Of a DNA stretch of 64,000 bases, positions 3,027-33,369 are shown piece after piece. This stretch comes from Candidatus Aenigmatarchaeota archaeon (GTDB lineage Archaea > EX4484-52). The position numbers were made by a program, and so were the translations under genes. The DNA lies in assembly GCA_023137195.1 (NCBI GenBank), contig JAGLPV010000001.1, positions 42,242 through 106,241 of the forward strand. The letters are read 5' to 3'. The notes under the pieces were generated by a model. It saw nothing but the letters and a program-made list of their open reading frames with translations, was not told where the DNA came from and ran no database searches. Positions within the stretch are counted from its first letter, which is position 1, and each line of letters opens with the position of its first letter.

Positions 3027-3136
3027 AATTTTACCTGCTAAAAACCATAGTTTTTTAAATATTTACTAATAATGATGGTAAAGCTTATAAAGATTTTGTT
3101 TTTTCGAACTCCTTTTATTAAATGAGTTAGGTAGCA

Positions 3137-5296: not shown

Positions 5297-5347
5297 TAAT
5301 ACTATTTTATTGACAAAATATATAAAGAATACTGTGTTTATCATTAA

Positions 5348-6619
5348 ATGAAATATTTTTGTGACCTCCATATACATTCGAGATATTCGCGCGGTACAAG
5401 CAAAAACATTACGATTGAAAACCTTGCTAAATATGCCAAAATAAAGGGATTGAATATTATTGGGACTGGTGATTTTACGCATCATGAGTGGTTTGCTGAA
5501 TTGAAAGAGAAACTTCAGGAAAAGAACAATAAGGGAATATATTATTTTAAGAAAGATACATCCCAGAGTAGTCTTCTTCAATATTCTGATTTGTCGGGTG
5601 GGCAGGAAGAGGAGAAGGAAGTTGGGTTTGTTTTCCAGACAGAGATTTCTTTAATGTATTCTGATGAGGAAAAATCGAGAAAAGTTCACATAGTATTGTT
5701 GTCGCCGAATATTGAAGTGACAGAGCAGATAAACAAATACCTTGCATCAAAGGGAAGGATGGATTATGATGGCAGACCGATATTCGGGCATCTTCCATGC
5801 CATCAGCTGACTGCTGATTTAAAAAAAATATCCGATGATATCGAGATTATTCCTGCGCATGTGTGGACCCCGTGGTTTGGCTTGTTTGGTTCCAAGTCTG
5901 GTTTTGACAGGATAGAGGATGCTTTTTTGGATCAGACAAAACATATTTACGGGCTTGAGACAGGACTTTCAAGCGACCCAAAAATGAATTACCATCTGAG
6001 TTGTCTTGATAGGTTTGTTATGATAAGCAGCAGTGATGCGCATTCTTATTATCCGTGGCGATTGGGCAGGGAGGCGACGATATTTGATTTTGAGAAAGAA
6101 ATATCTTATGATGATTTGATTGGTGCAATAAGGCAAAAAAATAAAGGGTATTCTGGTACCATTGAAGTTGATCCGCGTTATGGAAAATATTACTTTGACG
6201 GGCACAGGGACTGTAACATTAGTATATCTCCTACAGAGGCAATAGAAAAGTATCACAACATCTGTCCTGTCTGTAAAAAGCCGTTGACAATAGGTGTTTT
6301 TCATCGTGTAATGGAACTTGCAGACAGGAAGGAAGAATATGTCGCCGCGGACAAGCCATCTTATTATACTTTGCTTCCTCTTTTTGAAATAATTTCTGCT
6401 GTGAAGAATATCTCGACACTACAGTCTAAGACGATATGGGGTATTTATAACAGGATGATAAAACAGTTCGGGAATGAATATAATATTTTGATTAATGTTC
6501 CGGAAGAGGAGTTGTCTAAGATTGTGGATGAAAAAATAGCAAAAGAGATAGTAAATATAAGAAATAAGCAATACCTCATTGAAGAAGGAAGCGATGGGGT
6601 TTACGGTAAATTAAAATAG
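5348..6619 (+). CDS. Endonuclease Q (PHP-domain endonuclease acting 5' of deaminated bases)
   Basis: 423 aa. N-terminal PHP motif DLHIHSRYSRG..GTGDFTHHEW, mid SSSDAHS..RLGRE, zinc finger CPVCKKPLTIGVFHRVMELADR, and C-terminal GSDGVYGKLK. Length and order are collinear with my recollection of Pyrococcus EndoQ. Confidence 0.85.
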   Translation: MKYFCDLHIHSRYSRGTSKNITIENLAKYAKIKGLNIIGTGDFTHHEWFAELKEKLQEKNNKGIYYFKKDTSQSSLLQYSDLSGGQEEEKEVGFVFQTEISLMYSDEEKSRKVHIVLLSPNIEVTEQINKYLASKGRMDYDGRPIFGHLPCHQLTADLKKISDDIEIIPAHVWTPWFGLFGSKSGFDRIEDAFLDQTKHIYGLETGLSSDPKMNYHLSCLDRFVMISSSDAHSYYPWRLGREATIFDFEKEISYDDLIGAIRQKNKGYSGTIEVDPRYGKYYFDGHRDCNISISPTEAIEKYHNICPVCKKPLTIGVFHRVMELADRKEEYVAADKPSYYTLLPLFEIISAVKNISTLQSKTIWGIYNRMIKQFGNEYNILINVPEEELSKIVDEKIAKEIVNIRNKQYLIEEGSDGVYGKLK

Positions 6620-16256: not shown

Positions 16257-16802
16257 TTATAGTTTATTATCCTTTATTTTTTTTGCTAGATTCTCTGTTG
16301 CTCTTTCTATTTCACTTTCGCTTCTGGCGCCTGTACATACGATTCTGCCTGAATTGAAGAGAAGAAAGACCACGTGAGGATCATTTAATCTTAATATTAG
16401 CCCTGGGAATGATTCCGGTTCGTATTCGCATCCGTCTAATGCAAATGCGATTTTGTCCAGTACTAATGTCCGGTTTAATGTGCCTGATGCAACCATGTTT
16501 ACGATTTCTTCGTCCGGTTCCTGATCAATTGTTATACCTTGATTTCTTAATATGTCCATCAGGAATCTTGTCGCTTCCTGCGCTAGTTTAAATGATTTTG
16601 TTCCTGAGCATATTATCTTTCCTGTTGAAAAGATTAGATAATTTGCTTTTGGGTCCTTTGTCCTGTAAACAAGTCCGGGAAATACTTCCGGCTCATATTC
16701 TGCATCGTCCAGATTGTTTGCGAGTTTCTCTAAAGGAACTTCGCAGTGCAAATCTGTCGACACGACAACATTATGTACTTTTAAATCATATTCTCCTGCC
16801 AT
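16257..16802 (-). CDS. tbp: TATA-box binding protein
   Basis: Two direct TBP repeats (NVVVSTDL...EYEPEVFPGLVYR...FSTGKIICSG and NMVASGTL...EYEPESFPGLILR...FNSGRIVCTG). Confidence 0.93.
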   Translation of the reverse strand: MAGEYDLKVHNVVVSTDLHCEVPLEKLANNLDDAEYEPEVFPGLVYRTKDPKANYLIFSTGKIICSGTKSFKLAQEATRFLMDILRNQGITIDQEPDEEIVNMVASGTLNRTLVLDKIAFALDGCEYEPESFPGLILRLNDPHVVFLLFNSGRIVCTGARSESEIERATENLAKKIKDNKL

Positions 16803-18686: not shown

Positions 18687-18739
18687 AACATTAATCTATT
18701 TAGATGGTTTTTTATTTTTATCTAATAATTGATTATAAT

Positions 18740-18885
18740 TCAATTAGTCCGACAGTATCTCACTAATTGGTTTTTTTGTCCTTCAAATCCTTCGGGAATT
18801 TCAACTAAAAAGGAGGGTGGCATTTTGCCCCCATCCTTCTGCAAAGCTCTTATCTCTTTACCGGTGGTTTTTTAAATATCTTTCG
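18740..18885 (-). pseudogene. Decayed Bro-N/DinD-like gene fragment (repeat copy 1)
   Basis: The minus-strand reading is ...YLKNHR*RDKSFAEGWGQNATLLFS*, which parallels YLKDMRRRDESFAEGWGQIATPLSVE of the Bro-N ORF at 21.3 kb. It contains an in-frame stop and a 1-nt indel. Confidence 0.55.
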
Positions 18886-19274
18886 GCTACCAACGCCTCG
18901 GAAAATTTGCCGCTGGCAACTGCTTTGATGAAATTAAGCTCCATGTTAACAAAATCCATCTCTGTCTTGTCTTCGGCTTCTACATGCTTTCTTAATTCTT
19001 CCTTGCTGGATGTCCCCTCATCTGCAGATAATTTGAAATATTCCGGCACGCTGGTCTCCAGACGCCACAATACTATCTTTTTGATTTCCTCGTCAAGTTT
19101 TTTATCATTTGTCATATTATCCCCGTTCTCCAGCATTTTTATGATTTTTTCGCCAAGTTCAGAATTGTTTTTTACTTCAATCATTGCCGCATTCCATGCG
19201 TATGGTTCATCATCAATCACCACAATCACATCCTCTTTGCGGATTTTTTCAAGAAGGTTAGCATATATTCTCAT
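18858..19274 (-). CDS. Hypothetical protein (138 aa), possibly the 5' part of a disrupted chimeric gene
   Basis: Intact ORF with an acidic helical composition. Only its last codons (YLKNHR) and the 3' flank are homologous to the Bro-N gene. No other motif was recognised. Confidence 0.45.
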   Translation of the reverse strand: MRIYANLLEKIRKEDVIVVIDDEPYAWNAAMIEVKNNSELGEKIIKMLENGDNMTNDKKLDEEIKKIVLWRLETSVPEYFKLSADEGTSSKEELRKHVEAEDKTEMDFVNMELNFIKAVASGKFSEALVAERYLKNHR

Positions 19275-19359
19275 GAACTTTGCTTTTTTTGTCTTCCATG
19301 TATGATTTATACGTGCAGAATATTTAACTGTTTAACGCGCGCGCTATTTGAAAAATCAT

Positions 19360-19435
19360 TTATTTTCTTTCTCTAATTTTTTTCGTATTTTCCTTTAAAT
19401 CCAGATAATTATCCGGTGAAACTATATTTTTCCTA
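19360..19435 (-). pseudogene. Relic of a DinD/Bro-N-like gene C-terminus
   Basis: The minus-strand reading is ...NIVSPDNYLDLKENTKKIRERK*, which parallels IVSQDNYLDLKENRKKLEEKS* at 20574-20640. The ~60-nt stretch 19369-19430 is a near repeat of 20586-20645. The open frame (19360-19578) has no ATG. Confidence 0.5.
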
Positions 19436-19675
19436 TTTTGTGTCTTCAGTTTCAACCGTCGACAAATTGTCGATAACTCAATTTCGCTTGGTTCTGATTC
19501 TCTTTTTTCACAATATGCCAACGATTTTAGTTGTACGATTTTATCGTACGGTTCAAATCCTTCTTCTTTGAGTTTTATTTATTGTGGGGTTTAATGCCCT
19601 GTTGCTTGTGGTGGAATGTTATATTTTGTCTGAATTGATACTCTGAAGCTCTGTTTAGGGTTATTTATTGAGAAT

Positions 19676-19870
19676 TTATGAACTTTTAGATGCATTTTGT
19701 AAATTATTCAAATCAACATATTCAGATTCTGGAGTTTGTCTTGTTTCTTTTAATTCTTTTTTGGCATGGTCGCTTAATTCGTAATCCTCTTTAAGCGTGT
19801 TTTTGATAAATTCTATATCTATCTTCATTTCAAGCAGTTCCTGATGGAGTGTTTCAATTGAGATTGCCAT
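19676..19870 (-). CDS. Small hypothetical protein (64 aa, helical/charged)
   Basis: The track ORF is trimmed to the ATG at 19870 (MAISIETLHQELLEMKIDIEF...). Repeat copy 2 lies immediately upstream. Possibly antitoxin-like, but no motif supports that. Confidence 0.4.
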   Translation of the reverse strand: MAISIETLHQELLEMKIDIEFIKNTLKEDYELSDHAKKELKETRQTPESEYVDLNNLQNASKSS

Positions 19871-19911
19871 ATGGAGTATAATGGACGATAAAATTATATG
19901 GTTATGTTGCA

Positions 19912-19952
19912 GTTCAACTAAAAAGGAGGGCGGCAATTTGCCTCCACCCTTC
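19912..19952 (-). repeat. Bro-N core repeat, copy 2 (gene relic)
   Basis: gttcaactaaaaaggagggcggcaatttgcctccacccttc. The minus strand reads SEGWRQIAALLFS*. Homologous to 18799-18845 and 21268-21313. Confidence 0.6.
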
Positions 19953-19992
19953 GCTAAAATTATTGTAGATTTTCATGACATAAAAATAGAAA

Positions 19993-20199
19993 CTAAACGC
20001 TTAAAACCTCGATAGGGGTGCTTTTGTTTGCGTGTTTTAAAACATTGAGTTTTTCAAATCCAATTATGTTATTATTTTTGTCTTTTTTTAGTATTACTTC
20101 CTCTCCTGTTTCTTCGCAAATAAACTCTTTTTTTGCGTCATCAAACCATACATCTAAAGTATTTGTTTGGGTGTTTAATATGACTTTTATTTTTTCCAT
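19993..20199 (-). CDS. DUF2283-like small protein (putative antitoxin-type partner)
   Basis: 68 aa. MEKIKVILNTQTNTLDVWFDD...EETGEEVILKKDKNNNIIGFEKLNV matches the DUF2283 (YuzE-like) pattern. It overlaps the upstream gene by 13 nt. Confidence 0.65.
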   Translation of the reverse strand: MEKIKVILNTQTNTLDVWFDDAKKEFICEETGEEVILKKDKNNNIIGFEKLNVLKHANKSTPIEVLSV

Positions 20200-20522
20200 A
20201 TTTCTTCTCCTTCTTTTATTTTGTCTGTAATATATGTGGTTATGAGTATTTTTTTGATTTTATTTACAACCACGCATATATAACGCGGCTTATTATTATA
20301 AACTATTCTCCTGTAAATTAAATATACATTCTCGTCTGTTTTGCTTTGCCTTATTATTTCAGGGTCTTCTAATGTTTTTATGATGTCTTTTTCTTTGTTT
20401 TTCATCATAGGGTGTTTAATTGTGATAATATAATCCCAATAGCTTTCTGAAAGAGAGATGCTGGTATTCAAACGAGTCATTATCTCAAATTTTATTGTTT
20501 TTTTAACTGGCTTATTTTCCAT
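20187..20522 (-). CDS. Putative toxin-like protein (DUF4258/RelE-barnase-like layout)
   Basis: 111 aa. ...HPMMKNKEKDIIKTLEDPEIIRQSKTDENVYLIYRR...YICVVVNKIKKILITTYITDKIKEGEEIW resembles small toxins found paired with DUF2283. Assigned by pattern and pairing only. Confidence 0.5.
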   Translation of the reverse strand: MENKPVKKTIKFEIMTRLNTSISLSESYWDYIITIKHPMMKNKEKDIIKTLEDPEIIRQSKTDENVYLIYRRIVYNNKPRYICVVVNKIKKILITTYITDKIKEGEEIWKK

Positions 20523-20573
20523 ATTATGATTTTATTGTTTTCTTTTTACTGATTATTATAAATCCAATATTTT

Positions 20574-21474
20574 TCAACTTTTTTCCTCTAATTTCTTCCT
20601 ATTTTCCTTTAAATCCAGATAATTATCCTGGGAGACTATTTTTATTCCAAAACTCTTTTCTGCATCAATTCTTGCCCTTCCTGCGACTTTTCCGCCTTCT
20701 ATTGCTGTATCTTTGTTTTGGATAAAGCCCTGCGCATCTTTCTTTCGTGTTGCTTCTGTTGTTAATTTCTCGCCCAGCATTGAAAAGATAAGCTCTAAAT
20801 CAGCCATCCTAAAAAACCCGAAGGGGTTTTTGGGACACCAAAAATCTATGATTTTTGCGTGTGTGATCCCTTAAATTCTGGTTTTTGAATTTTGGGTCGA
20901 GTCCTTTAATTTGTTTGTGCGCTTTAATAGGGACTCCGAAAGTGGCTTTGGAGATTTCATTTGTCAGGATTGCGTAATCTCTTTTTTCTTCTATTCCTCT
21001 GTTTTTCCACTCTTCTGTTAATTCCTGTCTTATGGCGATTCCTCTTAAGCGTTTGTCAATCCAGTCTTTTGGGTATCCTTTTAATTCGTAGTATTCTTTT
21101 GCCCTGTCCTGTGCGAGTTCAGGGTTTTGAATTTCCTGTATTCTTTCGTATCCGACTTTTGCGAGCCATTGCTTGAATGGTTCTGCTTTGAGGGAAGGGA
21201 TTGATTGGATAAGACGAAAAGCTCCTTTCGTGGAGACGCAATTGAGCTTCTGAAGACCTCCGGCAGTTTCAACTGAAAGGGGGGTGGCAATTTGCCCCCA
21301 TCCTTCTGCAAAACTTTCGTCTCTTCGTCTCATGTCCTTTAAATATCCTTTTGGGTCTTTGCTGTCAGTGAGGATGGCAATGATGTCTGCGGCAACAAAC
21401 CACCATTCGTCATTAAACCATGTTCTTCTGATTTTTTGTCCCTCGAATATTGCAAGTGAGTTGGTTTGGTTCAT
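20574..21474 (-). pseudogene. Bro-N / DinD-like (DNA-damage-inducible protein D family) gene split by a 55-nt insert
   Basis: The 5' ORF (20809-21474) has the Bro-N core FAEGWGQIATPLSVETAGGLQKLNCVSTKGAFRLIQSIPSLKAEPFKQWLAKVGYERI. It reads ...NLRDH, then runs into 17 junk codons and a stop. The 3' ORF (20574-20807) starts MADLELIFSMLGEK..., which is the expected continuation. The insert at 20808-20862 forms two hairpins. Confidence 0.7.
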
Positions 21475-21477
21475 ATT

Positions 21478-22794
21478 TTACCTAAATTTAGTCCAATTAA
21501 AGCCTTTATCATGGCTTTTTTCAAGATATATTCCTTTATATCCGAGTATTTCTAACATAAATCTTTCAAAAATATTTAATGCTAAATAATATGCTTTTGT
21601 AGTTTTTTTAAAAGTTATTTTTTTAATTGGATTTTTTGATTTTCCTTCATGAATAACTAAATTTCTAATATCTATTAGAAGTTTCAAATTTTTTTCAGAG
21701 TATCTAAATTTTTCTAGATTAAAAATTTCTTCTAAAATTTCTTTAAAACTTTTTTTAATTCGCTTTCCTTTTTTATTTTTTATATAATTTCCTTTATTAT
21801 CTCTTTTATGTTCGTCAATCAAACAACTTTTAATATATCTTTCTTTCAATGCTTCAAACAAGATTGCAATTAGTGCAAATTTTGCCTCTAATGTAACGCA
21901 ACGAAAAGATTCTATGTAAAATTCAATTAAATCGTGAAAGTCATTGATTTTATTTAAAATCGCTTCAAAATTTGGATATGTTTTTTCAATAACATCAGAA
22001 ATAGGATTTGAATAACTAAATCGAAGAATGCCATCATTTTCCGAATAAGGATATTTTTTATCATCAAAATAAATTCTCTTTAAGGCATTATCTTGTACAA
22101 TTTCAATTTTTTCTAAAGAAACATAGTTTGCAGTATAGAATGACAATAAATACAACAACTGATGTATAGTTTTTGTTTTATTAGAAATATAAATAGAATT
22201 AGTTTCGAATCGAATAATAGCAGTAGTCTGACATATTCCATAATACTCTAAAAGATCTTTAGAATTTTTATCATAATAGTATGGACATACCCTATATTTT
22301 TGTTTGTCAATAAAAAAATCCCTTTTGTAAACACTTATTTTTCCAAGATTCATATTATTCAAATAATATCTTACTTCTTTTTTGCCTCTAATAAATTTGC
22401 CTTCTTTTATTTCTAAATCACATGGAAGAAATTTCCATATTTGACGCCCTTCTGACCCACATAGAATATTTTTTTTAATTACAATTTTCTCTTCATTTTC
22501 ACTTATGCCTTCAAATCGGAATATTTTTTTTGATATTTTTTCGTCTATATCTAGAAAAATATTATTATCCGAATATAAAAAAAACTCTTTAACTCCATTA
22601 GAATAAATAATTAATCGAAAATTACCAGATATTACCAAACCCTTTTTATTAATTGTTTTGCCTTTGCCAGAATATTCTTCAGATTTTTTAATTTGCTTTT
22701 TTTGTTCCGCACATGTTTTTTTTAGTTCTTCGTTTTCTTTTCTTAATTTTTCATTTTCTTCCACAAGATTATTATTTTCTTCTATTTTACTCAT
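21478..22794 (-). CDS. Coiled-coil protein with a C-terminal HEPN-like Rx4H motif (candidate ApeA-like abortive-infection RNase)
   Basis: 438-439 aa. N-terminal heptad-like EENEKLRKENEELKK. The C-terminal helical region contains LEAKFALIAILFEALKERY and IDIRNLVIHEG (RNLVIH at 21649-21666). Its ATG at 22794 overlaps the TGA of the upstream 34-codon ORF. Coding status is solid; the function is hypothesis. Confidence 0.75.
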   Translation of the reverse strand: MSKIEENNNLVEENEKLRKENEELKKTCAEQKKQIKKSEEYSGKGKTINKKGLVISGNFRLIIYSNGVKEFFLYSDNNIFLDIDEKISKKIFRFEGISENEEKIVIKKNILCGSEGRQIWKFLPCDLEIKEGKFIRGKKEVRYYLNNMNLGKISVYKRDFFIDKQKYRVCPYYYDKNSKDLLEYYGICQTTAIIRFETNSIYISNKTKTIHQLLYLLSFYTANYVSLEKIEIVQDNALKRIYFDDKKYPYSENDGILRFSYSNPISDVIEKTYPNFEAILNKINDFHDLIEFYIESFRCVTLEAKFALIAILFEALKERYIKSCLIDEHKRDNKGNYIKNKKGKRIKKSFKEILEEIFNLEKFRYSEKNLKLLIDIRNLVIHEGKSKNPIKKITFKKTTKAYYLALNIFERFMLEILGYKGIYLEKSHDKGFNWTKFR

Positions 22795-22898
22795 CACAAC
22801 CCTCCTTCAACAACTTTAATCTCATCATCATTTAGCTCATACAACAGATAAACCATTCTGTCAATTTCCTTGTCGGTTTCATCTATTTTTTCTTCCAT
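22794..22898 (-). pseudogene. 34-codon relic/mini-ORF duplicating the C-terminal tail of a type IIG methyltransferase
   Basis: MEEKIDETDKEIDRMVYLLYELNDDEIKVVEGGL* compares with the RM C-terminus LKEKIDETDREIDKMVYKLYGLSNEEIGIVEGL* (23551-23655). A ~45-nt nucleotide core is nearly identical. Confidence 0.55.
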
Positions 22899-22933
22899 CT
22901 CATCACAATAATTTTTTTGTTATTTTCATACTT

Positions 22934-23554
22934 TTAATATATGTTGAATCGTTCTCTCAATATGCATCTTGTTTGCTCTAAACTATAAAGCAATCCTTTT
23001 TTATCAGAATTGTCATTTATTATATCCATTATTTTTAAATGATAATAATTGTAAATTTTATCTTTTAAAATAAAATCATATCTTTTGTTTTTGGAGTTTA
23101 TGAAAACATTAAAAGAATCTTGTATTTTTATCATCATGAAATTGATAATGCGGGATTTATCTTCTATTCGATTTATGTATTTTTTTAAATCATTTGTTGA
23201 TCTTTTATCAATTTCATAATCGAGAATACGATAATACAACGATTCATTAGGTAATGGTAATAAATAAAAGGGAATGGATTGTTTTTTATAAGATTCTATC
23301 ATTTTTTCAATTTCATCAATCTTATATTTTAGTGTCCTTAATTGAGCTTTTTGATTTTTATCATGTTCTGATTTTTTAATCCATTCAGCTCCAATAAAAA
23401 TCATGATTGCAAACACTATAGAAATTATTGTAACCGACCCTGCGTGTTTGTCAAAAACTTCAATTAAATAATGAAAGTTACTATATATTAGAGTTAATAA
23501 TATTCCTAAAAAGAGTCCAAATAGGAAATAAATATAATTCTTTTTTTCCATCAT
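22934..23554 (-). CDS. Two-TM membrane protein with a helical cytoplasmic domain, unknown function, coupled to the RM gene
   Basis: 206 aa with hydrophobic segments YIYFLFGLFLGILLTLIY and VTIISIVFAIMIFIGAEW. Its ATG overlaps the RM stop (ATGA at 23551-23554). Confidence 0.7.
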   Translation of the reverse strand: MMEKKNYIYFLFGLFLGILLTLIYSNFHYLIEVFDKHAGSVTIISIVFAIMIFIGAEWIKKSEHDKNQKAQLRTLKYKIDEIEKMIESYKKQSIPFYLLPLPNESLYYRILDYEIDKRSTNDLKKYINRIEDKSRIINFMMIKIQDSFNVFINSKNKRYDFILKDKIYNYYHLKIMDIINDNSDKKGLLYSLEQTRCILRERFNIY

Positions 23555-26500
23555 AATCCCTCAACAATCCCAATTTCTTCATTACTCAATCCATACAATT
23601 TATAAACCATTTTGTCAATTTCCCTATCCGTTTCATCTATTTTTTCTTTCAGTTCTATTAATTCCTTTTTTCGCTCTTCAAAATACCCATCCCATTCATC
23701 CTGCTGTTTTAGAGACAGATTTATTTTTTGCTTTTTCAATTCGCCCAAAAAATCGGCAAAATTCAGATTAAAGAATTTATCTAATTTTTTTGTAATTTTT
23801 TCTAAATTTAAATTCTGCTTTAGTCGGCTTAAAAATTTGTTTTTCTTATTGTAAAAGTCCTTATTTAAATCAAGCATTATATCTGCTTTTTCTATGAATA
23901 GAGTTTGTTTTTCAATATCTATTTTTTTAATCGGAAATTTCCTCAAATCATTTAAAATTATTTTTGGAAACATTTTTCTAACAGATTTAGCCGTACTCTT
24001 TAAGAAATAATAAGACATTAAACTACTATTGAGTATAACCAATATATATTTCAAAGAAATATTTGTTCCTTCTTTTTCTATGATGGCAATATTGCTCCGA
24101 TTGAATAAATATAATTCATCACTAAATGTTGATATAATAGATTTCGGGAATGTTCCTGTAATTTCTCGTATAATTAGTTTAGATCCAGAAAATATATTAA
24201 ATGTTCTGGGGGCGGCAAGATGCTCGCCATATTTTAAATATAAATCACGCCAATTCAAATAATATCTTCCTACATCTTTTCCGTCCAAATATTTATGCGT
24301 GTCTTTATCATATTTGTAATTGAAATCATATGGTCTCTTTTTCACATCTTCTGCTGTTTGTTTGGGATTTCCTTTTCCATCTTCGTATGCTTGTAAACCT
24401 GCTTTTATGGTTGTTAAATCATTCAAGATACTTGAATTTGCTTTTAGTTTATTTAATAGTTTTTTGCTGTTATCATCAAAAAATACTTTAAATTCAAAAT
24501 CATCATCATTCTTAAAATCTTCTTGATTTTTTGAATGCGAGAATTCAAATAGTTTTCCTCTGCTCATTAAAATATTTATTTTATTAGTTTTTGTGTTTTG
24601 TTTTTTTGCATTAAAAATTATGGTTTCTACATTTACTCCTTCAAATGAATAACCAGATAAATTTATTATCTCTTTGATTTCGGAGGTTTTTAATATATAT
24701 TCTCTTAATTTCTTTGCAGAATTTACCATTAGCCAAGCATTTGGGACAATTAATCCATAATTCCCAGAATTCTTTAATAGAGCTATAGATTTCTCGATAA
24801 ATAATACATAAGTATTTACTTGATATTGGGCAGAATCATAATTGGACGAGTAATAATTTTTCTCTTCTTCGGATATTTTTTCTCTGGCAAAAATGTAAGG
24901 CGGATTCCCCACAACAACATCAAACCCGCCTTTCTCAAAAATCTCTTTAAACTCATCTCCCCACTTAAACGCCTTTTTCCCGGCAACTGCCTCATCATCA
25001 ATCAATGAATTTCCGCATTTGATATTTTCAGACAAACTGATTAATTTCTTGTTTTTTCTGGCAATTTTCAAAAACAGGGACAATTTTGTAATTTCAACAG
25101 ATTCTTCATTCAAATCCACGCCGAAAATATTATTCTGGATTATTTCCTTTGCCTCTTCCTCTTCGCTCCATTTTTTAAGCATTAATTGATTTTTTCCTTT
25201 GCTAAATGATGTGTATTGTCCGCTGTCCTGCTTGAACAGCCCGATTTCCCTGTGGATTTCCAGAAGAACATCAACTGCTTTTATCAAAAAAGCACCACTG
25301 CCGCAGGCAGGGTCAAGTATTTTTATATTGGCAAATTTTTCCTCAAGTTCTCTCATATTGCCGGAATATTCCAGAACCAGCTCTTTTGGAGTTTTGGCGG
25401 ATTTCTTTGACAAATAAGGGATGATGGTATTCCTGCAAATATAGTCTGTGATATATTCAGGAGTGTAAAATATGCCTTCCTTTTTTCTTTTTGAAATTTT
25501 GGATTCTTTCAGCGCATCTATATCGCTGAGGGACTGCTCGAAAATATGCCCGAGTATATTGACGCTGACCTCTGTCTTAAAGTCAAAAGAAGCCATCAAT
25601 AAAATGTTTTTCACTATCGGGTTTATTTTCCCGCTGTATTTGTCAATTGACTTTTGGGTGATTTCATCCAGATTTGCATCCTTTGCAAGACTGGAATTCT
25701 GGTAAATTTCAGAAAAAAAGCCCTTGTCCCGCATATCCTTAAAATAGATTTTCCGGGGTATCGGCATCCTGAAAAATTCCCCATTGAATCCGAATATTTT
25801 TATAGGGGTCGAAGCCCCTTTGTCAAGAGATAAAAACAAATCCGTTATTGAATCGCAGATGTAATGAGAATGCTCTGATATTGGCGTTGATTCCACTATA
25901 TTTACGACCCTGTCTTCAAAAATCCTTTTAGGAAGTTTGTCTGTGTCTTCTGCAAAAAAGATAAACATCAGGCGATTCAAAAATATCTGCGCAAAATGAA
26001 TGGGAGTATTTACTTTGTCGTGAAGCTCCTCGTTTTCTGCAAATTCCTTTATCAGCATCAGGCGGGTTTCATGAAACAATTTGTAAAATTCCTTTGTAAA
26101 GTTCTTTTCCTCTTTGATTGATTCATTTTCTGCTTTTTGGACAAAACCGCTTTCAATGCTTTTTTTGCCAAAAACAGCAATAAATTCCTTTAGTTTGCTG
26201 TCGCTGTTTTTGATGTCGAGAAAATCAAATATATGGTATTTGTCGTAGCTTTTGCCTCTATCGAACAAAACAAAATGCCTGTAATTTGTAAGAATGCCGT
26301 AAGGTATTTCGTATTTGCTCAAATAATCCCATATCTGGTTTACAGGCGTTGCTCTTGTTTTTGTATCTCTGCCCTGATATGCCCATAAATCTTTTGTTTT
26401 TGCGCCTTTTGCCTCAAAGCAAACCAATTTTTTTGAGTTTGAATCATTGAAAAGAAATTCAATATTGTGCCTTTCAAAATCAAAGTTTTTTGTGTTGTAG

Positions 26501-26679
26501 TCCAGTAAATTGTTTAATATTGTATCTGCAAACCTGAAATAATTTTTCTTCTCATCCTCTAATTTGTTATTTTCCAGCAATTCAATCCATTTTTTAGCAG
26601 CTTTTTTTTGCGATGCAGACGGCAAAGTATCAGAGCAAAGTTTTTCAAGAGTTTTTGGCTTGAACAAATTAGTTTCCAT
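23551..26679 (-). CDS. Type IIG (single-chain, Eco57I/MmeI-like) restriction endonuclease / N6-adenine DNA methyltransferase
   Basis: The N-terminus has a PD-(D/E)xK-like VCFEAKGAKT plus GILTNYRHFVLFD. The AdoMet motif ILDPACGSGAFL is at 25288-25317. The catalytic GNPPY has its NPPY at 24895-24906. A long C-terminal target-recognition region ends in the MVYKLYGLSNEEI tail. The start is probably METNLFK at 26679; the track start is 26697. Confidence 0.85.
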   Translation of the reverse strand: METNLFKPKTLEKLCSDTLPSASQKKAAKKWIELLENNKLEDEKKNYFRFADTILNNLLDYNTKNFDFERHNIEFLFNDSNSKKLVCFEAKGAKTKDLWAYQGRDTKTRATPVNQIWDYLSKYEIPYGILTNYRHFVLFDRGKSYDKYHIFDFLDIKNSDSKLKEFIAVFGKKSIESGFVQKAENESIKEEKNFTKEFYKLFHETRLMLIKEFAENEELHDKVNTPIHFAQIFLNRLMFIFFAEDTDKLPKRIFEDRVVNIVESTPISEHSHYICDSITDLFLSLDKGASTPIKIFGFNGEFFRMPIPRKIYFKDMRDKGFFSEIYQNSSLAKDANLDEITQKSIDKYSGKINPIVKNILLMASFDFKTEVSVNILGHIFEQSLSDIDALKESKISKRKKEGIFYTPEYITDYICRNTIIPYLSKKSAKTPKELVLEYSGNMRELEEKFANIKILDPACGSGAFLIKAVDVLLEIHREIGLFKQDSGQYTSFSKGKNQLMLKKWSEEEEAKEIIQNNIFGVDLNEESVEITKLSLFLKIARKNKKLISLSENIKCGNSLIDDEAVAGKKAFKWGDEFKEIFEKGGFDVVVGNPPYIFAREKISEEEKNYYSSNYDSAQYQVNTYVLFIEKSIALLKNSGNYGLIVPNAWLMVNSAKKLREYILKTSEIKEIINLSGYSFEGVNVETIIFNAKKQNTKTNKINILMSRGKLFEFSHSKNQEDFKNDDDFEFKVFFDDNSKKLLNKLKANSSILNDLTTIKAGLQAYEDGKGNPKQTAEDVKKRPYDFNYKYDKDTHKYLDGKDVGRYYLNWRDLYLKYGEHLAAPRTFNIFSGSKLIIREITGTFPKSIISTFSDELYLFNRSNIAIIEKEGTNISLKYILVILNSSLMSYYFLKSTAKSVRKMFPKIILNDLRKFPIKKIDIEKQTLFIEKADIMLDLNKDFYNKKNKFLSRLKQNLNLEKITKKLDKFFNLNFADFLGELKKQKINLSLKQQDEWDGYFEERKKELIELKEKIDETDREIDKMVYKLYGLSNEEIGIVEGL

Positions 26680-26729
26680 TAGTATAAATACTCTCAAATC
26701 TTATAAATTTATTCAATATGCAAACGATT

Positions 26730-28082
26730 TTAAAACACCTCTAATTGCTCCCTATACAACTCAACATAATAATAAACTGCCTGCTTTATATCCCCGTATT
26801 TTGTTCCCCTTATATGCGAGTAGTATTTCTCCTTCATGTCATTATAAAATATTATTGGAAAATACCCATGCTTGATTAATATAAAGTTAAACAGCAATCG
26901 TGCAACTCTTCCGTTGCCATCGTCGAAAGGGTGAATATAAACAAATTGATTATGAACCACCAAAGCAAGCACTAATGGATGAAGTGTGTTGTTGTTTTTA
27001 TTATACCAATCGACCAATAACCTGACTCTTTCATCGACAAACTCAGGGGGAGTGGTATTATCAACAAGAATTCCTGAATCATTAATAACGCAATTATCCT
27101 CTATTTTATAATTGCCCGCAGATTCCCCGATACCCTGTTGAGTAGCTAAGTTTAGCTTTTTTATGAATTCAACAGTAAGCTCATTTGACGTATCAAAGAT
27201 ATTATCCAATGCAGTTCTTGAATTTGTAGTTTCCAATATTGCTTTTTTATCTTTTTTTACAAGCTCATTTCCTATGGTAAGAATAGTTCTTACATCCTGC
27301 ATAGTAAGAATGTTTCCTTCTATTTTATCAGTATTGTAAATATATTTTATTTTCCAATCTGTTATTCGTCTTTCTATCTCAAAAATATTTGAATAAAATT
27401 CTTTTCTCTTTTTCTCTGTTAGTACATCTATTACAGTAATAAGGGGAAAATCAGTTTCCCTTAATTTACTTAAGATAAAATCTTTCCCGTCTAAATAATG
27501 TTTTATGTTGAGTTCTGCTAATTCTTTAGATTGATCATCAGGGAGATGTTCTTTTTTTGCAGTAGTTGCTGAAAAAAATTTTATTACATCATGTCTATAC
27601 TCTTCCTCATCAAATTTTAAATCGATATCAAAAAAGTCTAATAACATTTTTGTTGGTTCTTCCCATGACCTAATAAGATAAATGACACTATTTCCTTTAT
27701 GAATAGAGTATATTATTCTTGTCTTTCTTGCGATGTCTTTAACTACTCTTAAATTATGATATGGAAGTTCATGTGATTTTAATGTTGGTTCAACACTAAA
27801 CCTTTGTAATATATTTTTTACATGAGTCGTGAATAATGATTCCGCATCCTGTTTGAAAATAGCAGTAATTGCTTCTATGATTTTTACTTTTGCGTTCATT
27901 TTATTTAGCGAATAAACACCTTTGCCCTCTTTTGTAATGTAATTCAAATTTTGTAATTTTCTTAAATACGGATGAATCCCGGAGTGATATTTTAGATTCA
28001 TTAAAATCGCTAATTCTTCCGAAGTATAACTTTCTTTATTGCCTAAACACATTTTTATTAATATTTTTATTTCTTTATTCAT
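26730..28082 (-). CDS. Fic-domain protein (putative AMPylase) with an N-terminal winged-helix domain
   Basis: The Fic motif HPFDDGNGRVAR is at 26898-26933. An intramolecular inhibitory-helix-type motif TDKIEG ([S/T]xxxE[G/N]) is at 27315-27332. The N-terminus is MarR-like wHTH (ELAILMNLKYHSGIHPYLRKLQNLNYITKEGKGVYSL). Confidence 0.88.
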   Translation of the reverse strand: MNKEIKILIKMCLGNKESYTSEELAILMNLKYHSGIHPYLRKLQNLNYITKEGKGVYSLNKMNAKVKIIEAITAIFKQDAESLFTTHVKNILQRFSVEPTLKSHELPYHNLRVVKDIARKTRIIYSIHKGNSVIYLIRSWEEPTKMLLDFFDIDLKFDEEEYRHDVIKFFSATTAKKEHLPDDQSKELAELNIKHYLDGKDFILSKLRETDFPLITVIDVLTEKKRKEFYSNIFEIERRITDWKIKYIYNTDKIEGNILTMQDVRTILTIGNELVKKDKKAILETTNSRTALDNIFDTSNELTVEFIKKLNLATQQGIGESAGNYKIEDNCVINDSGILVDNTTPPEFVDERVRLLVDWYNKNNNTLHPLVLALVVHNQFVYIHPFDDGNGRVARLLFNFILIKHGYFPIIFYNDMKEKYYSHIRGTKYGDIKQAVYYYVELYREQLEVF

Positions 28083-28221
28083 AATACCGTTATATATGAC
28101 CTTAAATTTATAAATGTGTGTGTATTTTTTAATAAATTAATAAATTTAATAATAATAAGAGTTAACATGTGTTAACAAATTAATAAAAATAATTATTCCC
28201 GTTCGGGTTTAATACATCAAT

Positions 28222-28998
28222 TCAAAACTCCTCTTCAACATACTTCACAGCATTCTCAAATATCGCCAGCCCTGAAGTCGAACCCACAGACTCATCCGAA
28301 GCCCGCTCTGGGTGAGGCATCATCCCAAGAATCGTCCCTGTCGAGTTGCATATCCCTGCAATATCATACACCGAACCATTAGGATTAAACGGATATTTCC
28401 CGTTTGCAGGTCTTGCTTTATCATCCCCGTAAATAAAGACAATCTGGTCATTTTCAATCAATTTCATCAGCAGTTCCTGAGATATCTTGAAATTTCCTTC
28501 CCCGTGAGCGATAGGCATCTTTAAAGTGCGGTCATAAGGAATTCCTTTTGCAAATATGCATTTCCCCCTGCTGGCATTAATCAAATTAACGCTCCTGCTC
28601 TCGAACGTCAGTTTTTCATTTGTTGCAAGAGCCGCCTGCTGTGTTTTGCTTATGCCGTCAATTCCCGGCAAAAGTCCTGCTTCGACCAATATCTGGAACC
28701 CATTGCAGATTCCGATTATCGGCTTTTTTGCATTTACAAATTCTTCAACATCGGCAGAAAGTTCCTTCATCAGTTTCTTTGCAAATACTACTCCTGAGCG
28801 GATATGGTCTGAATTTGAAAACCCGCCGGGAAATACCAAAATATGAAAGTCATTTAGTTTTTCTTCTTTTGACAGGAATTTGTTTAAGTGAATTACTCTT
28901 GAGTTTGCCCCGAGTTTATTGAAAATGTAGTTTGTCTCCCTGTCGCAGTTTGTGCCGGGTTCGCGCAGGACGCAGACTTTTATTTTATTTTTTTCCAT
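28222..28998 (-). CDS. purQ: Phosphoribosylformylglycinamidine synthase, glutaminase subunit (PurQ)
   Basis: Class I glutamine amidotransferase with nucleophile context GICNGFQIL and MPHPER near the C-terminus. Confidence 0.92.
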   Translation of the reverse strand: MEKNKIKVCVLREPGTNCDRETNYIFNKLGANSRVIHLNKFLSKEEKLNDFHILVFPGGFSNSDHIRSGVVFAKKLMKELSADVEEFVNAKKPIIGICNGFQILVEAGLLPGIDGISKTQQAALATNEKLTFESRSVNLINASRGKCIFAKGIPYDRTLKMPIAHGEGNFKISQELLMKLIENDQIVFIYGDDKARPANGKYPFNPNGSVYDIAGICNSTGTILGMMPHPERASDESVGSTSGLAIFENAVKYVEEEF

Positions 28999-31896: not shown

Positions 31897-33369
31897 TTAA
31901 ATAAAGGAAAATGCTGTTAGCGGGATATAAATTATATTTTCATCCATTGTTATTTTTTGTGTGTCTGATATTACAATTCCGTATTCAGATTTGTATTTCA
32001 TAATGGCTCTTTTTATTTGCCTTTTGTTCTTTTTCCCGATGCCTACTTCTATTGGAATTATTTTTCCTTCTATGTCCTCGAGCAGAAAATCAACGCCTTC
32101 TTTATCTGCATCGTAAAATATCCCTATTGGAACTTTTAGCGTTTCTTTTATCCTGAAAAAATATGAAGCAACCAGAGTTTCTGCCAATATTCCGAGCATT
32201 TCTCTGTCTGTATTGTTGTATAAGCCAAGTTTGTATCTTAAGGATGCATTTATCGAGGGAGATAAAAAATAATATTTCCATGGCTTTCTTACAATTTTTC
32301 CTGCTCCACCGTATGGCTTTACACTGAAAATCAAGTGTGTTTTTTCAAGGACATCAAGTATGCTCCTTACTAGGGTTGGAGACACAGAGAGTCTCTCTGA
32401 AAGTTTTGCATCAGAAGTGCCCCCTGGGTTTTGCATGGCAAGGAAATATATGATTCTTGTAATGTGATTTCTTGTGTCTGTGCTAAAGGACTGAAGAGAG
32501 AATACATCCATTTCTATTACTCGGTCAGTCATCTTGGCTAATTTCTCGTGCACCTCAAACTCCTTTAATGAAAGACTAAACGGAAAACCACCGTAACACA
32601 AAAAATTCTCCAATTCTCTCTTCAAATCAACCCCTGCACCAATCGCCTTCATTATAATTTTATGCTCTATTTCAGCAGCATTTTCCACAGCTTTTTTATT
32701 CCCGGTGAAAATGATTTTTATTATCTCTGATGAAAAATTTTCTGAAAGGTCAATTCCGTATTTTAAATGCAGATGCTCCTCAAAACTCAATGGAAAAATT
32801 CGTATTTCTGATGCCCTTCTGGCAGCATCGACATTTAATTCCAAATCCAATGCTGAGGATCCGGTAAATACAATAAAGATTTTTCTGCTTTGGTCAAAGA
32901 AGATTTTTCCTGTCATAGACCAGTCCTTGTCGTAGTGTGCTTCATCAACAAAGATTATTAATGGCTCGTCAAGCTCTACTGCTGTAGTTCTGTGGACTTT
33001 CTGGATAAATGCATCAATTACATGCAATATATTTTCTCCAATATAACCCTTCATTTCGTCTGTAGAAAAATACAGCACGCGGTTTTTGTCTATTTTTTTT
33101 TTATCTATCAGGTAATCGTAAATTTGGAATAATATTGTTGTTTTTCCCATACTCCTTAATCCGGGCATGATTATAAACCTGTTTTCTAAATTCTTTCCCG
33201 AGAGAAAGTCATCGATATATTTTTTTATTTCCCAATAAGCACGCCTGTATTTAAGTCGAATGTGGTTTTTATGAGTATATTTTTGTGCCAGCAATGGCGT
33301 ACTTGTTAATTTTGCAAATACATAGTTTGGTATTGTATCTTTGTCATCAATTGCTGTTTTTCCTGCCAT
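31897..33369 (-). CDS. AAA-family ATPase with a DUF4143-like C-terminal domain (COG1373-type)
   Basis: Walker A GLRSMGKTT and Walker B IIFVDEAHY. The C-terminal segment (ETLVASYF...GVDFLLED...IPIEVGIGKK) is typical of AAA_14 + DUF4143 proteins. Confidence 0.8.
   Translation of the reverse strand: MAGKTAIDDKDTIPNYVFAKLTSTPLLAQKYTHKNHIRLKYRRAYWEIKKYIDDFLSGKNLENRFIIMPGLRSMGKTTILFQIYDYLIDKKKIDKNRVLYFSTDEMKGYIGENILHVIDAFIQKVHRTTAVELDEPLIIFVDEAHYDKDWSMTGKIFFDQSRKIFIVFTGSSALDLELNVDAARRASEIRIFPLSFEEHLHLKYGIDLSENFSSEIIKIIFTGNKKAVENAAEIEHKIIMKAIGAGVDLKRELENFLCYGGFPFSLSLKEFEVHEKLAKMTDRVIEMDVFSLQSFSTDTRNHITRIIYFLAMQNPGGTSDAKLSERLSVSPTLVRSILDVLEKTHLIFSVKPYGGAGKIVRKPWKYYFLSPSINASLRYKLGLYNNTDREMLGILAETLVASYFFRIKETLKVPIGIFYDADKEGVDFLLEDIEGKIIPIEVGIGKKNKRQIKRAIMKYKSEYGIVISDTQKITMDENIIYIPLTAFSFI

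Follow-up and report, generated by a model that had tools for sequence, protein, structure and literature searches.

A YopA-family protein with a predicted C-terminal HEPN domain behind a type IIG restriction-modification gene in an Aenigmarchaeota genome

HEPN domains have a canonical layout of four up-down helices in which helices 2 and 3 are separated by an insert and helix 3 ends with the catalytic motif, a polar residue (N, D or H) directly after the motif arginine, and a "second conserved acidic residue in helix-2" (PMC3710099). The PrrC/RloC anticodon nucleases are HEPN RNases located in or beside restriction-modification (RM) operons, often together with Fic/Doc-like toxins (PMC3710099). 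[quoted passage not shown] The HEPN family DUF3644 (EC042_2821, including HEC-08 and Ishtar-type proteins) also occurs in RM operons (PMC3710099). It carries the HEPN domain N-terminally, fused to a wHTH, REase or Zn-ribbon, and in HEC-08 the HEPN histidine is required for defence (bioRxiv 10.1101/2024.01.29.577857). ApeA, likewise reported inside RM operons (PMC3710099), is a tRNA anticodon nuclease which forms a doughnut-shaped decamer/dodecamer and is activated by 5'-phosphorylated deoxydinucleotides; the solved structure is built from an N-terminal domain that is mostly alpha-helical, a distinct Mid domain and a split HEPN domain (bioRxiv 10.64898/2026.01.26.701840).

For YopA of Bacillus phage SPbeta, the namesake of the family described here, the literature search found nothing on its function, on YopA together with HEPN, or on the Pfam accessions PF26308 and PF27216, and the 2013 HEPN survey does not mention YopA in its main text. 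Because YopA's own function is unassigned, the family name is mechanistically uninformative. The YopA_M/YopA_C entries, including the SPbeta gene, are all annotated as "hypothetical".

In the window, the whole stretch of 64,000 nucleotides that was analysed, a low-GC island (0.25-0.33 versus 0.36-0.40) is located between purQ and purM. It contains the target gene as well as genes coding for a Fic/SoFic protein, a type IIG RM enzyme and a Bro-N/PDC-S13 homologue, in the following arrangement:

26730-28082, minus strand: Fic-domain protein (SoFic / PDC-S04-like), marking the island's upstream border
23551-26697, minus strand: type IIG (MmeI/Eco57I-like) RM enzyme (Pfam Eco57I 8e-46, MmeI_Mtase, TaqI_C; PADLOC REase_MTase_IIG 3e-79)
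23557-23678, no strand assigned: direct repeat copy 2, with which the type IIG RM gene itself truly ends (3' end)
22934-23554, minus strand: 206-aa ORF, its N-terminus predicted to form two transmembrane helices, between the repeat copies, its start overlapping the RM stop
22803-22924, no strand assigned: direct repeat copy 1, a remnant of the RM 3' end (over its 122 nt, identity to 23557-23678 is 72%)
22794-22898, minus strand: relic ORF of 34 codons (MEEKIDETDKEIDRMVYLLYELNDDEIKVVEGGL, then stop), a copy of the tail with which a type IIG RM enzyme ends C-terminally
22801-22805, minus strand: GGAGG, Shine-Dalgarno-like, 6 nt upstream of the ATG at 22794, read from the sequence
21478-22794, minus strand: complete YopA-family coding sequence, 438 aa, stop codon at 21478-21480
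20574-21474, minus strand: Bro-N / PDC-S13 homologue, beginning 3 nt past the target stop

The target ORF stays open throughout and encodes 438 aa from the ATG at 22794 or 439 aa from the GTG at 22797. Since the GGAGG sequence lies 6 nt upstream of it, the ATG is favoured; the open reading frame of the first-pass annotation is real, and its 439 aa apply to the GTG start only. The TGA of the relic ORF, which is publicly annotated as a 34-aa gene, overlaps the target ATG, and the core of the direct repeat is about 82% identical between the two copies. The 206-aa ORF showed no family match and proved unrelated to the 212-aa ORF that separates mod from res in the neighbourhood of one relative (L001). 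Downstream, a frameshift divides the Bro-N / PDC-S13 gene into two parts, 20809-21474 and 20574-20807, which match PADLOC PDC-S13 with 5e-81 (profile 1-206) and 1.7e-17 (profile 204-277). An identical target protein is encoded on 4 public contigs of the archaeal MAG Candidatus Aenigmarchaeota. Its NCBI name is "DUF667 domain-containing"; homology to CFA20/DUF667 was rejected, as it derives from a local match of 38 aa below threshold.

The target is a member of the YopA family (YopA of Bacillus phage SPbeta; Pfam YopA_M/YopA_C). Word-indexed homologue searches returned 3-6 relatives, and an exhaustive profile search was needed for the full family, which yielded 47 representatives at E<=1e-3, 10 of them at E<=1e-10. 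In hhalign, the 47-member family profile aligned with SPbeta YopA alone at 98.6% (E 6e-16) and with a 21-member YopA-group profile at 99.7% (E 5.7e-27) over 271 columns, corresponding to target residues 140-431. A precomputed Pfam match to YopA_C (PF27216, E<=1e-5) exists for the identical protein; YopA_M (PF26308) is precomputed for the relatives P0010 and P0049 and not for the target itself. SPbeta (SPBc2) YopA and the target, each 438 aa long, show homology that starts near residue 140 and continues as far as the C-terminus, and have the signatures LLSF, ALE, RNxxxH and GYxG in common, but they are only about 19% identical. Unlike SPbeta YopA, the target is archaeal (Aenigmarchaeota MAG), possesses an extra N-terminal coiled coil and has a divergent N-terminal beta domain, which does not align with YopA. 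Searched by tblastn, 50,697 phage records contained no match to the target, and scans of metagenome and viral contigs with profile A1 gave no close relative. The scan of genome contigs with A1 returned two dubious Flavobacteriales matches inside ORFs of about 885 aa.

An AF2 model based on the 47-sequence alignment reached a mean pLDDT of 91.5 and a pTM of 0.88, whereas with 3 sequences the pLDDT was 42 and the model unusable. Together with the alignments it gives the following layout, all on the minus strand:

22687-22794, minus strand: residues 1-36, long N-terminal helix or coiled coil, lineage-specific (AF2 helix 7-34)
22345-22686, minus strand: residues 37-150, variable beta-rich N-domain (AF2 strands 37-146)
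22009-22344, minus strand: residues 151-262, alpha/beta middle domain (YopA_M-like) with conserved LLSF (S218) (hhalign to the YopA group, residues 140-431)
21481-22008, minus strand: residues 263-438, C-terminal HEPN-like domain (Pfam YopA_C; PF27216, DUF3644/HEPN_RiboL-PSP matches, AF2 helices)
21853-21855, minus strand: E314, an acidic residue of helix 2 (ExLK) that is conserved in 45 of 47 sequences
21649-21666, minus strand: R377-N-L-V-I-H382, putative catalytic Rx4H motif at the C-terminal end of helix 3

The coiled-coil N-terminus and the beta-rich region described in the first-pass annotation are both present in the model, the former as the long helix 7-34, the latter as strands from 37 to 171 that lead into the alpha/beta middle part. 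The C-terminus, described there as all-helical over about 140 aa, is mainly helical, but it covers about 175 aa (263-438) and ends with a short beta-hairpin. The coiled coil is missing from the closest homologues (column occupancy 0.23 in the family), and its sole match is a weak, low-complexity one to phrog_3671. The N-domain (37-150) is the least conserved part of the family and often absent; it is a candidate sensor or specificity module. In the middle domain, S218 of the LLSF motif is retained in 43 of the 47 relatives. A reading of "GKGKT" (43-47) as a P-loop was rejected, because the sequence departs from GxxxxGK[ST], close homologues do not retain it, and the model places it within a strand.

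In the C-terminal domain, the DSSP analysis of the AF2 model assigned helices to residues 287-298, 302-322, 367-383 and 395-417, with an insert at 323-366. This secondary structure corresponds to the four-helix HEPN layout, and the Rx4H motif at 377-382 forms the end of helix 367-383, entering the loop to helix 4. The four-helix core, which had been proposed as a check, is seen in the predicted model. Foldseek of the full-length model against PDB and BFVD found no match at E<=0.001, and the top-ranked, non-significant matches (E>0.01) were beta-barrels (PNPOx-like, LolB, GFP, tail-tube) and no HEPN structures. HMMER searches of the PDB sequences with the profiles A1 and A2 and with the relative P0016 also gave no meaningful match (PriL at 0.0028 in two fragments; uL6 and CFA20 as noise).

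The nucleotide position of the RNLVIH motif in the first-pass annotation was exact; its residue numbers 378-383 follow the GTG start and become 377-382 from the ATG. Rx4-6H occurs once in the target, which has only 5 histidines in total. By chance, 0.21 occurrences of Rx4H and 0.64 of Rx4-6H would be expected in this protein, in line with the earlier caution that six residues alone are weak evidence. It is the conservation across the family that makes the motif more than a chance occurrence, as R377 and H382 are invariant among homologues, being present in all 45 representatives that cover the site (16-49% identity). The residue after the arginine is N (N378) in 38 and D in 3 of these 45, and is thus of the polar type found at this position in the HEPN superfamily. 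E314, in helix 302-322, falls inside LEAKFALIAILFEALKERY, a helix that had already been pointed out, and provides the helix-2 acidic residue (Ex3[KR]-like), here with the spacing Ex2K and not Ex3K. Downstream, GYxG is conserved, with G421 in 43 of 45 relatives. In the alignment with the SPbeta YopA group, R377 and H382 coincide with the invariant R375 and H380, and E314 with the invariant E311.

The isolated C-terminal domain was compared with 24,736 Pfam models, of which the best two were DUF3644 (E 5.9e-6, 26.4 bits, GA 27.6) and HEPN_RiboL-PSP (E 6e-4, 20.2 bits, GA 28.4; profile 58-184 of 191), each spanning E314 to H382. Among the 47 relatives, HEPN_RiboL-PSP was matched by 9, HEPN_Apea by 5 and DUF3644 by 4, giving 18 HEPN matches, all below threshold. 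PADLOC matches among the relatives were Cas13-ApeA (2e-6, one relative), Csx1/Csm6 (2e-5) and Cas13a. The recurrent profile matches of target and relatives are to HEPN families only (in Pfam, and of the Cas13/Csm6 type in PADLOC). Every match to a curated HEPN model remains below its gathering score, even the best one, and this counts against the HEPN reading. DUF3644/EC042_2821 provides the best curated profile for the target domain, but membership was rejected owing to the sub-threshold score and the different architecture, since the target HEPN domain is C-terminal, behind the beta-rich and YopA_M parts. HEPN_RiboL-PSP (PF18735), the HEPN profile that matches most family members and also the target domain, differs as well in its N-terminal architectures.

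Placement right after RM genes recurs among the relatives. In L012 the homologue has a 4-nt overlap with the stop of a type IIG gene of the MmeI-like kind and adjoins an OLD-family nuclease, in L001 it comes after a type III res gene, and in L022 Shedu and a type I RM system lie beside it. L005 and L016 are integrase islands. Defence genes are absent in 2 of the 8 informative neighbourhoods, and no antitoxin or partner is conserved among the relatives. With PrrC/RloC the target has the HEPN domain, the RM linkage and Fic-type neighbours in common; however, no ATPase family matches the target, whose N-domain is beta-rich, and membership was rejected, as the RM-linked context alone is shared.

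The proposal of the first-pass annotation, an ApeA-like HEPN RNase, has to be divided. [quoted passage not shown] ApeA and the target are both single proteins in which a large non-catalytic N-terminal region (about 260-300 aa) precedes a C-terminal HEPN domain with Rx4H in helix 3, and RM systems accompany both; among the relatives, the weak HEPN_Apea matches reach 2.4e-5 at best, P0016 aligns to positions 1-120 of the 136 of that profile, and the Cas13-ApeA match points in the same direction. However, the target itself matches neither HEPN_Apea (PF18739), the profile that was to be checked, nor Apea_NTD1 even at E<=10, PADLOC assigns it 0 families, its relatives match HEPN_RiboL-PSP more often than HEPN_Apea, and its strong homology is to YopA. 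Furthermore, the N-terminal two-thirds of its 438 aa are beta-rich, with the 38-aa CFA20 fragment as the only Pfam match in residues 38-261, whereas ApeA is mainly alpha-helical and about 580 aa long (at least 583 aa, since the HEPN region of Ec2ApeA reaches residue 583). By Pfam and PADLOC profiles and the published ApeA structures, ApeA membership is not supported, and a true ApeA that cleaves tRNA anticodons in doughnut-shaped, deoxydinucleotide-activated oligomers is very improbable here. By analogy, the logic of the two proteins is likely alike, a latent RNase with a switch in the sensor region, and the target may function in an ApeA-like way, one protein serving as HEPN defence effector and its N-terminal region as the sensor. 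That the HEPN RNase serves a mobile element or virus, by host shut-off, competitor exclusion or an addiction-like stabilisation of RM, and not host immunity, is unlikely but deserves more weight. The family namesake is encoded by a phage, relatives lie in the integrase-bearing islands, the adjacent Bro-N gene is of a type typical of viruses and mobile elements, and the RM-tail relic and low GC point to mobility of the cassette. In addition, the SPbeta master repressor MrpR binds the promoter of yonX, the gene just upstream of yopA (PMC10516654), so that YopA may belong to the lytic phase of the phage instead of defending lysogens. On the other side stand the empty phage search, the viral contigs without a close relative, and neighbours that are classical defence genes (RM, Fic/SoFic, Shedu, OLD). 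Defence genes are commonly carried by prophages, and the carriage by SPbeta therefore cannot separate a host-defence from an element-serving role.

It is also conceivable, though improbable, that the C-terminal domain is HEPN-like or merely motif-bearing without being a nuclease, acting in ligand or nucleic-acid binding or in regulation with R and H as binding residues. The sub-threshold curated models and the full-length Foldseek result would fit this, and HEPN domains without catalysis exist, but these characteristically lose Rx4-6H (PMC3710099), whereas here the arginine, the polar residue after it, the histidine and the helix-2 glutamate are kept down to 16% identity and across archaeal and Firmicute/phage branches. 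Finally, the motif could have arisen by chance in an AT-rich ORF without particular function, or the ORF could be no real gene; the expected 0.21 Rx4H and an NCBI name which reflects the sub-threshold match only are compatible with this. Its probability is negligible, as it was refuted by the family search at E<=1e-3, the invariance of the motif and the confident AF2 model, and the Shine-Dalgarno-like sequence with its ATG and the overlap of the start with the relic stop speak against it too.

The target is thus best explained, with reasonable probability, as a latent, RM-linked HEPN RNase defence effector of the YopA family. RM-associated HEPN toxins have been known as a class since 2013, which makes this reading plausible rather than surprising to a specialist. 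Family membership, motif invariance, predicted fold topology, island context and RM-adjacent placement were computed here; for the RNase activity and its substrate, dimerisation, trigger and defence phenotype, we infer the following course. The protein would combine four modules, the lineage-specific helix, the variable beta-rich N-domain, the YopA_M alpha/beta domain and the C-terminal HEPN domain (YopA_C), with E314, R377, N378 and H382 as predicted catalytic-type residues. It would be a latent, metal-independent endoribonuclease and, by analogy with other HEPN enzymes, may form a dimer with a composite Rx4H site. As a single-protein defence or abortive-infection effector, it would be coupled genetically, perhaps physically, to RM systems. 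An infection, or the disabling of its RM partner, would cause the N-terminal and middle domains to free the HEPN site, and the cleavage of an essential RNA (tRNA, rRNA or mRNA) would halt both cell and virus.

More tentatively, the YopA-like proteins of SPbeta and of diverse archaea (DPANN, Nitrososphaerota) might form an unrecognised family of RM-coupled HEPN RNase effectors with a new beta-rich sensor and a YopA_M regulatory module. The unit that moves might be a translationally coupled "type IIG RM + HEPN back-up" cassette, which would resemble PrrC-EcoprrI in function while consisting of unrelated parts.

Even if the RNase reading should be wrong, the public annotation "DUF667 domain-containing protein" is corrected and, usefully, ApeA membership is ruled out. 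If it is true, the orphan family YopA_M/YopA_C, including a gene of the well-studied SPbeta, would gain a function, and the defence repertoire, including that of the poorly studied DPANN archaea, would be extended by an RM-linked HEPN effector whose sensor architecture is new. In that case, yopA of B. subtilis would be a tractable model for the coupling of an RNase to a restriction system.

The gene for the YopA-like protein is located on the minus strand (21478..22794) and forms an open reading frame of 438 amino acids from the ATG at 22794, with a GGAGG box read 6 nt upstream of it. The ORF listing also offers a GTG start at 22797, one codon further upstream, which is why the first-pass annotation, correct in its placement of the ORF, gave 439 amino acids and residue numbers shifted by one. 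The sequence RNLVIH lies exactly at the reported nt 21649-21666 (minus strand), corresponding to residues 377-382, and is the sole Rx4-6H motif in a protein with five histidines. Since 0.21 Rx4H motifs are expected by chance from the composition of the protein, the motif on its own proves nothing, and the caution with which these six residues had been put forward was justified.

A word-indexed search returned the identical protein and two relatives only, with 46-48% identity. The identical public protein (P0001) is named 'MAG: DUF667 domain-containing protein [Candidatus Aenigmarchaeota archaeon]' at NCBI. This name derives from a match of 38 residues (217-254) to the eukaryotic ciliary family CFA20 that scores 21-23 bits, short of the cutoff of 24, and it is almost certainly wrong. 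Among 1.84 billion cluster representatives, searched exhaustively with an HMMER profile, 47 proteins reached E<=1e-3, ten of them E<=1e-10. The family alignment comprises the target and 46 relatives that are 16-49% identical to it. Its nearly invariant columns are S218, E314, R377, H382, and G421. R377 and H382, the pair singled out by the first-pass annotation, are kept in all 45 sequences reaching the site, the other two being truncated fragments, and E314 is kept in 45 of the 47. The residue following the arginine is N in 38 sequences and D in three. The N-terminus is the variable part of the alignment: the coiled-coil segment 1-36 is essentially confined to the target, and the first beta domain shows low conservation and is often absent among the relatives.

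Among HEPN families, the full-length protein matched DUF3644 alone (E 6e-5). With the isolated C-terminal domain, DUF3644 (E 5.9e-6, 26.4 bits against a threshold of 27.6) and HEPN_RiboL-PSP (E 6e-4) were the best two of 24,736 models, both covering the region from E314 to H382. DUF3644 corresponds to the HEPN family EC042_2821, which occurs in restriction-modification (RM) operons (PMC3710099); its HEPN histidine is needed for HEC-08 defence (bioRxiv 10.1101/2024.01.29.577857), and the Ishtar proteins, which act against plasmids, contain it as well. Of the Pfam families, only HEPN ones were hit by three or more of the 47 relatives, namely HEPN_RiboL-PSP (9), HEPN_Apea (5), and DUF3644 (4). 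Furthermore, five of the nine PADLOC models matched by relatives contain HEPN domains (Cas13-ApeA, Csx1/Csm6, two Cas13a models, and CARF_HEPN), each matched by one relative only. Every one of these HEPN profile matches is individually under its curated threshold.

AlphaFold2 reached a pLDDT of only 42 from three sequences, and a mean pLDDT of 91.5 with a pTM of 0.88 from the 47-sequence alignment. The latter model predicts the following elements:

Residues 7-34: long helix
Residues 37-171: run of strands
Middle part: alpha/beta, with helix 204-221 bearing the conserved LLSF
Residues 265-282, 287-298, and 302-322: first helices of the helical C-terminal domain, the third bearing E314
Residues 350-360: short helix within an insert following helix 302-322
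Residues 367-383: helix with R377 to H382 at its C-terminal end
Residues 395-417: helix, followed by a terminal beta-hairpin

The canonical HEPN core is a four-helix bundle, frequently with an insert between helices 2 and 3; the Rx4-6H motif is located at the end of helix 3, with a polar residue after the arginine, and helix 2 bears a second conserved acidic residue (PMC3710099). All four features are present in the target, according to the predicted model and the alignment. A Foldseek search of PDB and BFVD with the full-length model found no significant neighbour (best E 0.026), and its top-ranked non-significant matches were beta-barrel proteins. The HEPN reading is supported by conservation, profiles, and predicted topology, and not by structural neighbours. 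Given the concordance of the sub-threshold profile matches with motif and topology, the C-terminal domain is very likely a HEPN domain.

The first-pass annotation had proposed a possible ApeA-like HEPN RNase, of which the HEPN part is supported and the ApeA part is not. With a cutoff as loose as E<=10, the target gave no match to HEPN_Apea or Apea_NTD1, and no PADLOC model recognised it. In addition, ApeA monomers consist mainly of alpha-helices, arranged in N-terminal, Mid, and split-HEPN domains, and the HEPN_ApeA region of Ec2ApeA extends to residue 583 (bioRxiv 10.64898/2026.01.26.701840), whereas the target has 438 amino acids and a predicted beta-rich N-domain. As a statement of membership, the label ApeA is wrong for this protein.

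Precomputed Pfam labels on the homologues are instead YopA_C (PF27216) and YopA_M (PF26308). The eponymous yopA gene of Bacillus phage SPBc2 (AF020713, 69673-70989; 19673-20989 in the SPbeta locus L009) encodes a protein of exactly 438 amino acids, the same length as the archaeal one. In hhalign, the family profile scored 98.6% (E 6e-16) against SPbeta YopA alone and 99.7% (E 5.7e-27, 271 columns) against an alignment of 21 YopA relatives from Firmicutes, in which target residues 140-431 correspond to YopA 123-425. The YopA-group invariant residues E311, R375, N376, H380, and G416 align with E314, R377, N378, H382, and G421. These scores and aligned residues place the target, as judged from sequence comparison, in the YopA superfamily, as a divergent member from an archaeon. 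The members seen all carry the name 'hypothetical protein' or 'YopA central domain-containing protein'. The literature search found no paper on YopA function or on a YopA-HEPN link, and the main text of the 2013 HEPN survey (PMC3710099) does not mention YopA. An annotated stem-loop is located about 180 nt downstream of SPbeta yopA.

That the genome is archaeal is shown by TBP (16257-16802), the ribosomal proteins L31e and P1-like, and CDC48 near the target. The gene itself lies in an island of ~9.5 kb (about 18700-28200) with a GC content of 0.25-0.33, compared to 0.36-0.40 in the flanks. The island splits a purine operon, with purS-purL-purQ (31846-28222) on one side and purM (18686-17640) on the other, and its order is Fic, type IIG RM, 206-aa ORF, target, Bro-N/PDC-S13, and small ORFs:

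28222-28998: purQ, flanking the island
Fic protein, SoFic/PDC-S04-like
Type IIG RM enzyme, 1048 aa, MmeI/Eco57I-like
22934-23554, minus: 206-aa ORF, two predicted N-terminal transmembrane helices, then a Lys/Ile-rich region
22794-22898, minus: 34-codon relic ORF (MEEKIDETDKEIDRMVYLLYELNDDEIKVVEGGL∗), immediately upstream of the target
21478-22794, minus: YopA-like target
20574-21474, minus: Bro-N/PDC-S13 homologue, beginning 3 nt after the target stop
20187-20522, minus: 111-aa ORF without family match
19993-20199, minus: 68-aa ORF, weakly DUF2283-like, overlapping the end of the 111-aa ORF

The overlapping 68-aa and 111-aa ORFs at the island edge could be a small toxin-antitoxin pair. The homologue of Bro-N and the defence candidate PDC-S13 consists of two ORFs (221 and 77 aa) because of a frameshift around nt 20808. 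Another public assembly (L019) calls the second piece as 68 aa, so that the break could reflect a pseudogene, programmed frameshifting or a mistake in the assembly. The start of the 206-aa ORF overlaps the stop codon of the type IIG gene. Its product has no match in Pfam, PADLOC or NCBIfam, is unrelated to the 212-aa ORF within the type III RM operon of locus L001, and could act as a small effector in the membrane or assist the RM system.

The relic ORF repeats, in diverged form, the 33 C-terminal residues of the type IIG enzyme (…EKIDETDREIDKMVYKLYGLSNEEIGIVEGL∗), and its TGA shares one A with the target ATG. This pair of tails makes up a 122-nt direct repeat (22803-22924 and 23557-23678, 72% identity) that flanks the 206-aa ORF on both sides, which suggests cassette exchange via recombination at the conserved RM 3′ end. 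The simplest reading of the sequence is that the YopA-like gene once lay directly behind a type IIG RM gene, its start codon overlapping the stop codon of that gene. Recombination at the conserved RM tail would later have brought in the 206-aa cassette, or a new RM gene in place of the old one.

In locus L012, the stop of an MmeI-like type IIG gene (1131 aa) overlaps the gene of a 436-aa homologue (Rx4H motif RKEFVH) by 4 nt; beside this pair lie an OLD-family ABC-ATPase/TOPRIM nuclease (2185-3921) and a split DDE transposase of an IS element (4759-5581), making this locus a further compact defence island. In L001, the res gene of a type III RM system lies 67 nt upstream of a homologue with 46% identity. 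The L022 homologue, one of whose 90%-cluster mates comes from a Nitrososphaerota archaeon, adjoins an AAA_14/DUF4143 ATPase, a Shedu (SduA_C) gene, and a complete type I RM system. The YopA-like genes of L005 and L016 lie in integrase-bearing islands, and the neighbourhoods L021 and L023 contain no recognisable defence gene. RM systems are thus found in four of the eight informative neighbourhoods, directly upstream in three, and no downstream or antitoxin-like partner is conserved. This RM-linked pattern is the one reported for PrrC/RloC, ApeA, and DUF3644-type HEPN proteins (PMC3710099). The ATPase of L022 (493 aa, 3492-4973) is similar to one of about 490 aa located just past purS in the window (31897-33369, minus strand), which may be due to chance or point to a recurrent neighbour.

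By analogy with characterised HEPN enzymes (PMC3710099; bioRxiv 10.64898/2026.01.26.701840), from which we infer substrate, trigger, oligomeric state, and phenotype alike, two subunits would join through their C-terminal domains, so that R377, N378, H382, and E314 make up a composite RNase site that works without metal. The conserved YopA_M middle domain and the variable beta domain would keep this site off and serve as sensor, until an infection-linked trigger releases RNA cleavage and leads to cell arrest. As an alternative suggested by how closely the genes are coupled, the RNase would be triggered in a PrrC-like manner once the RM partner is lost or inhibited. In a serious rival reading, the RNase would act for a mobile element or phage and not for the host: SPbeta carries YopA, a Bro-N gene adjoins the target, and the SPbeta master repressor MrpR has a binding site at the promoter of yonX, the gene upstream of yopA (PMC10516654), so that expression of yopA might belong to the lytic cycle.

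The most fitting description of the target is a candidate HEPN ribonuclease of the YopA family that is linked to RM systems. HEPN effectors of defence islands are already well known; new here are the family, hitherto uncharacterised, and the architecture of its N-terminus.
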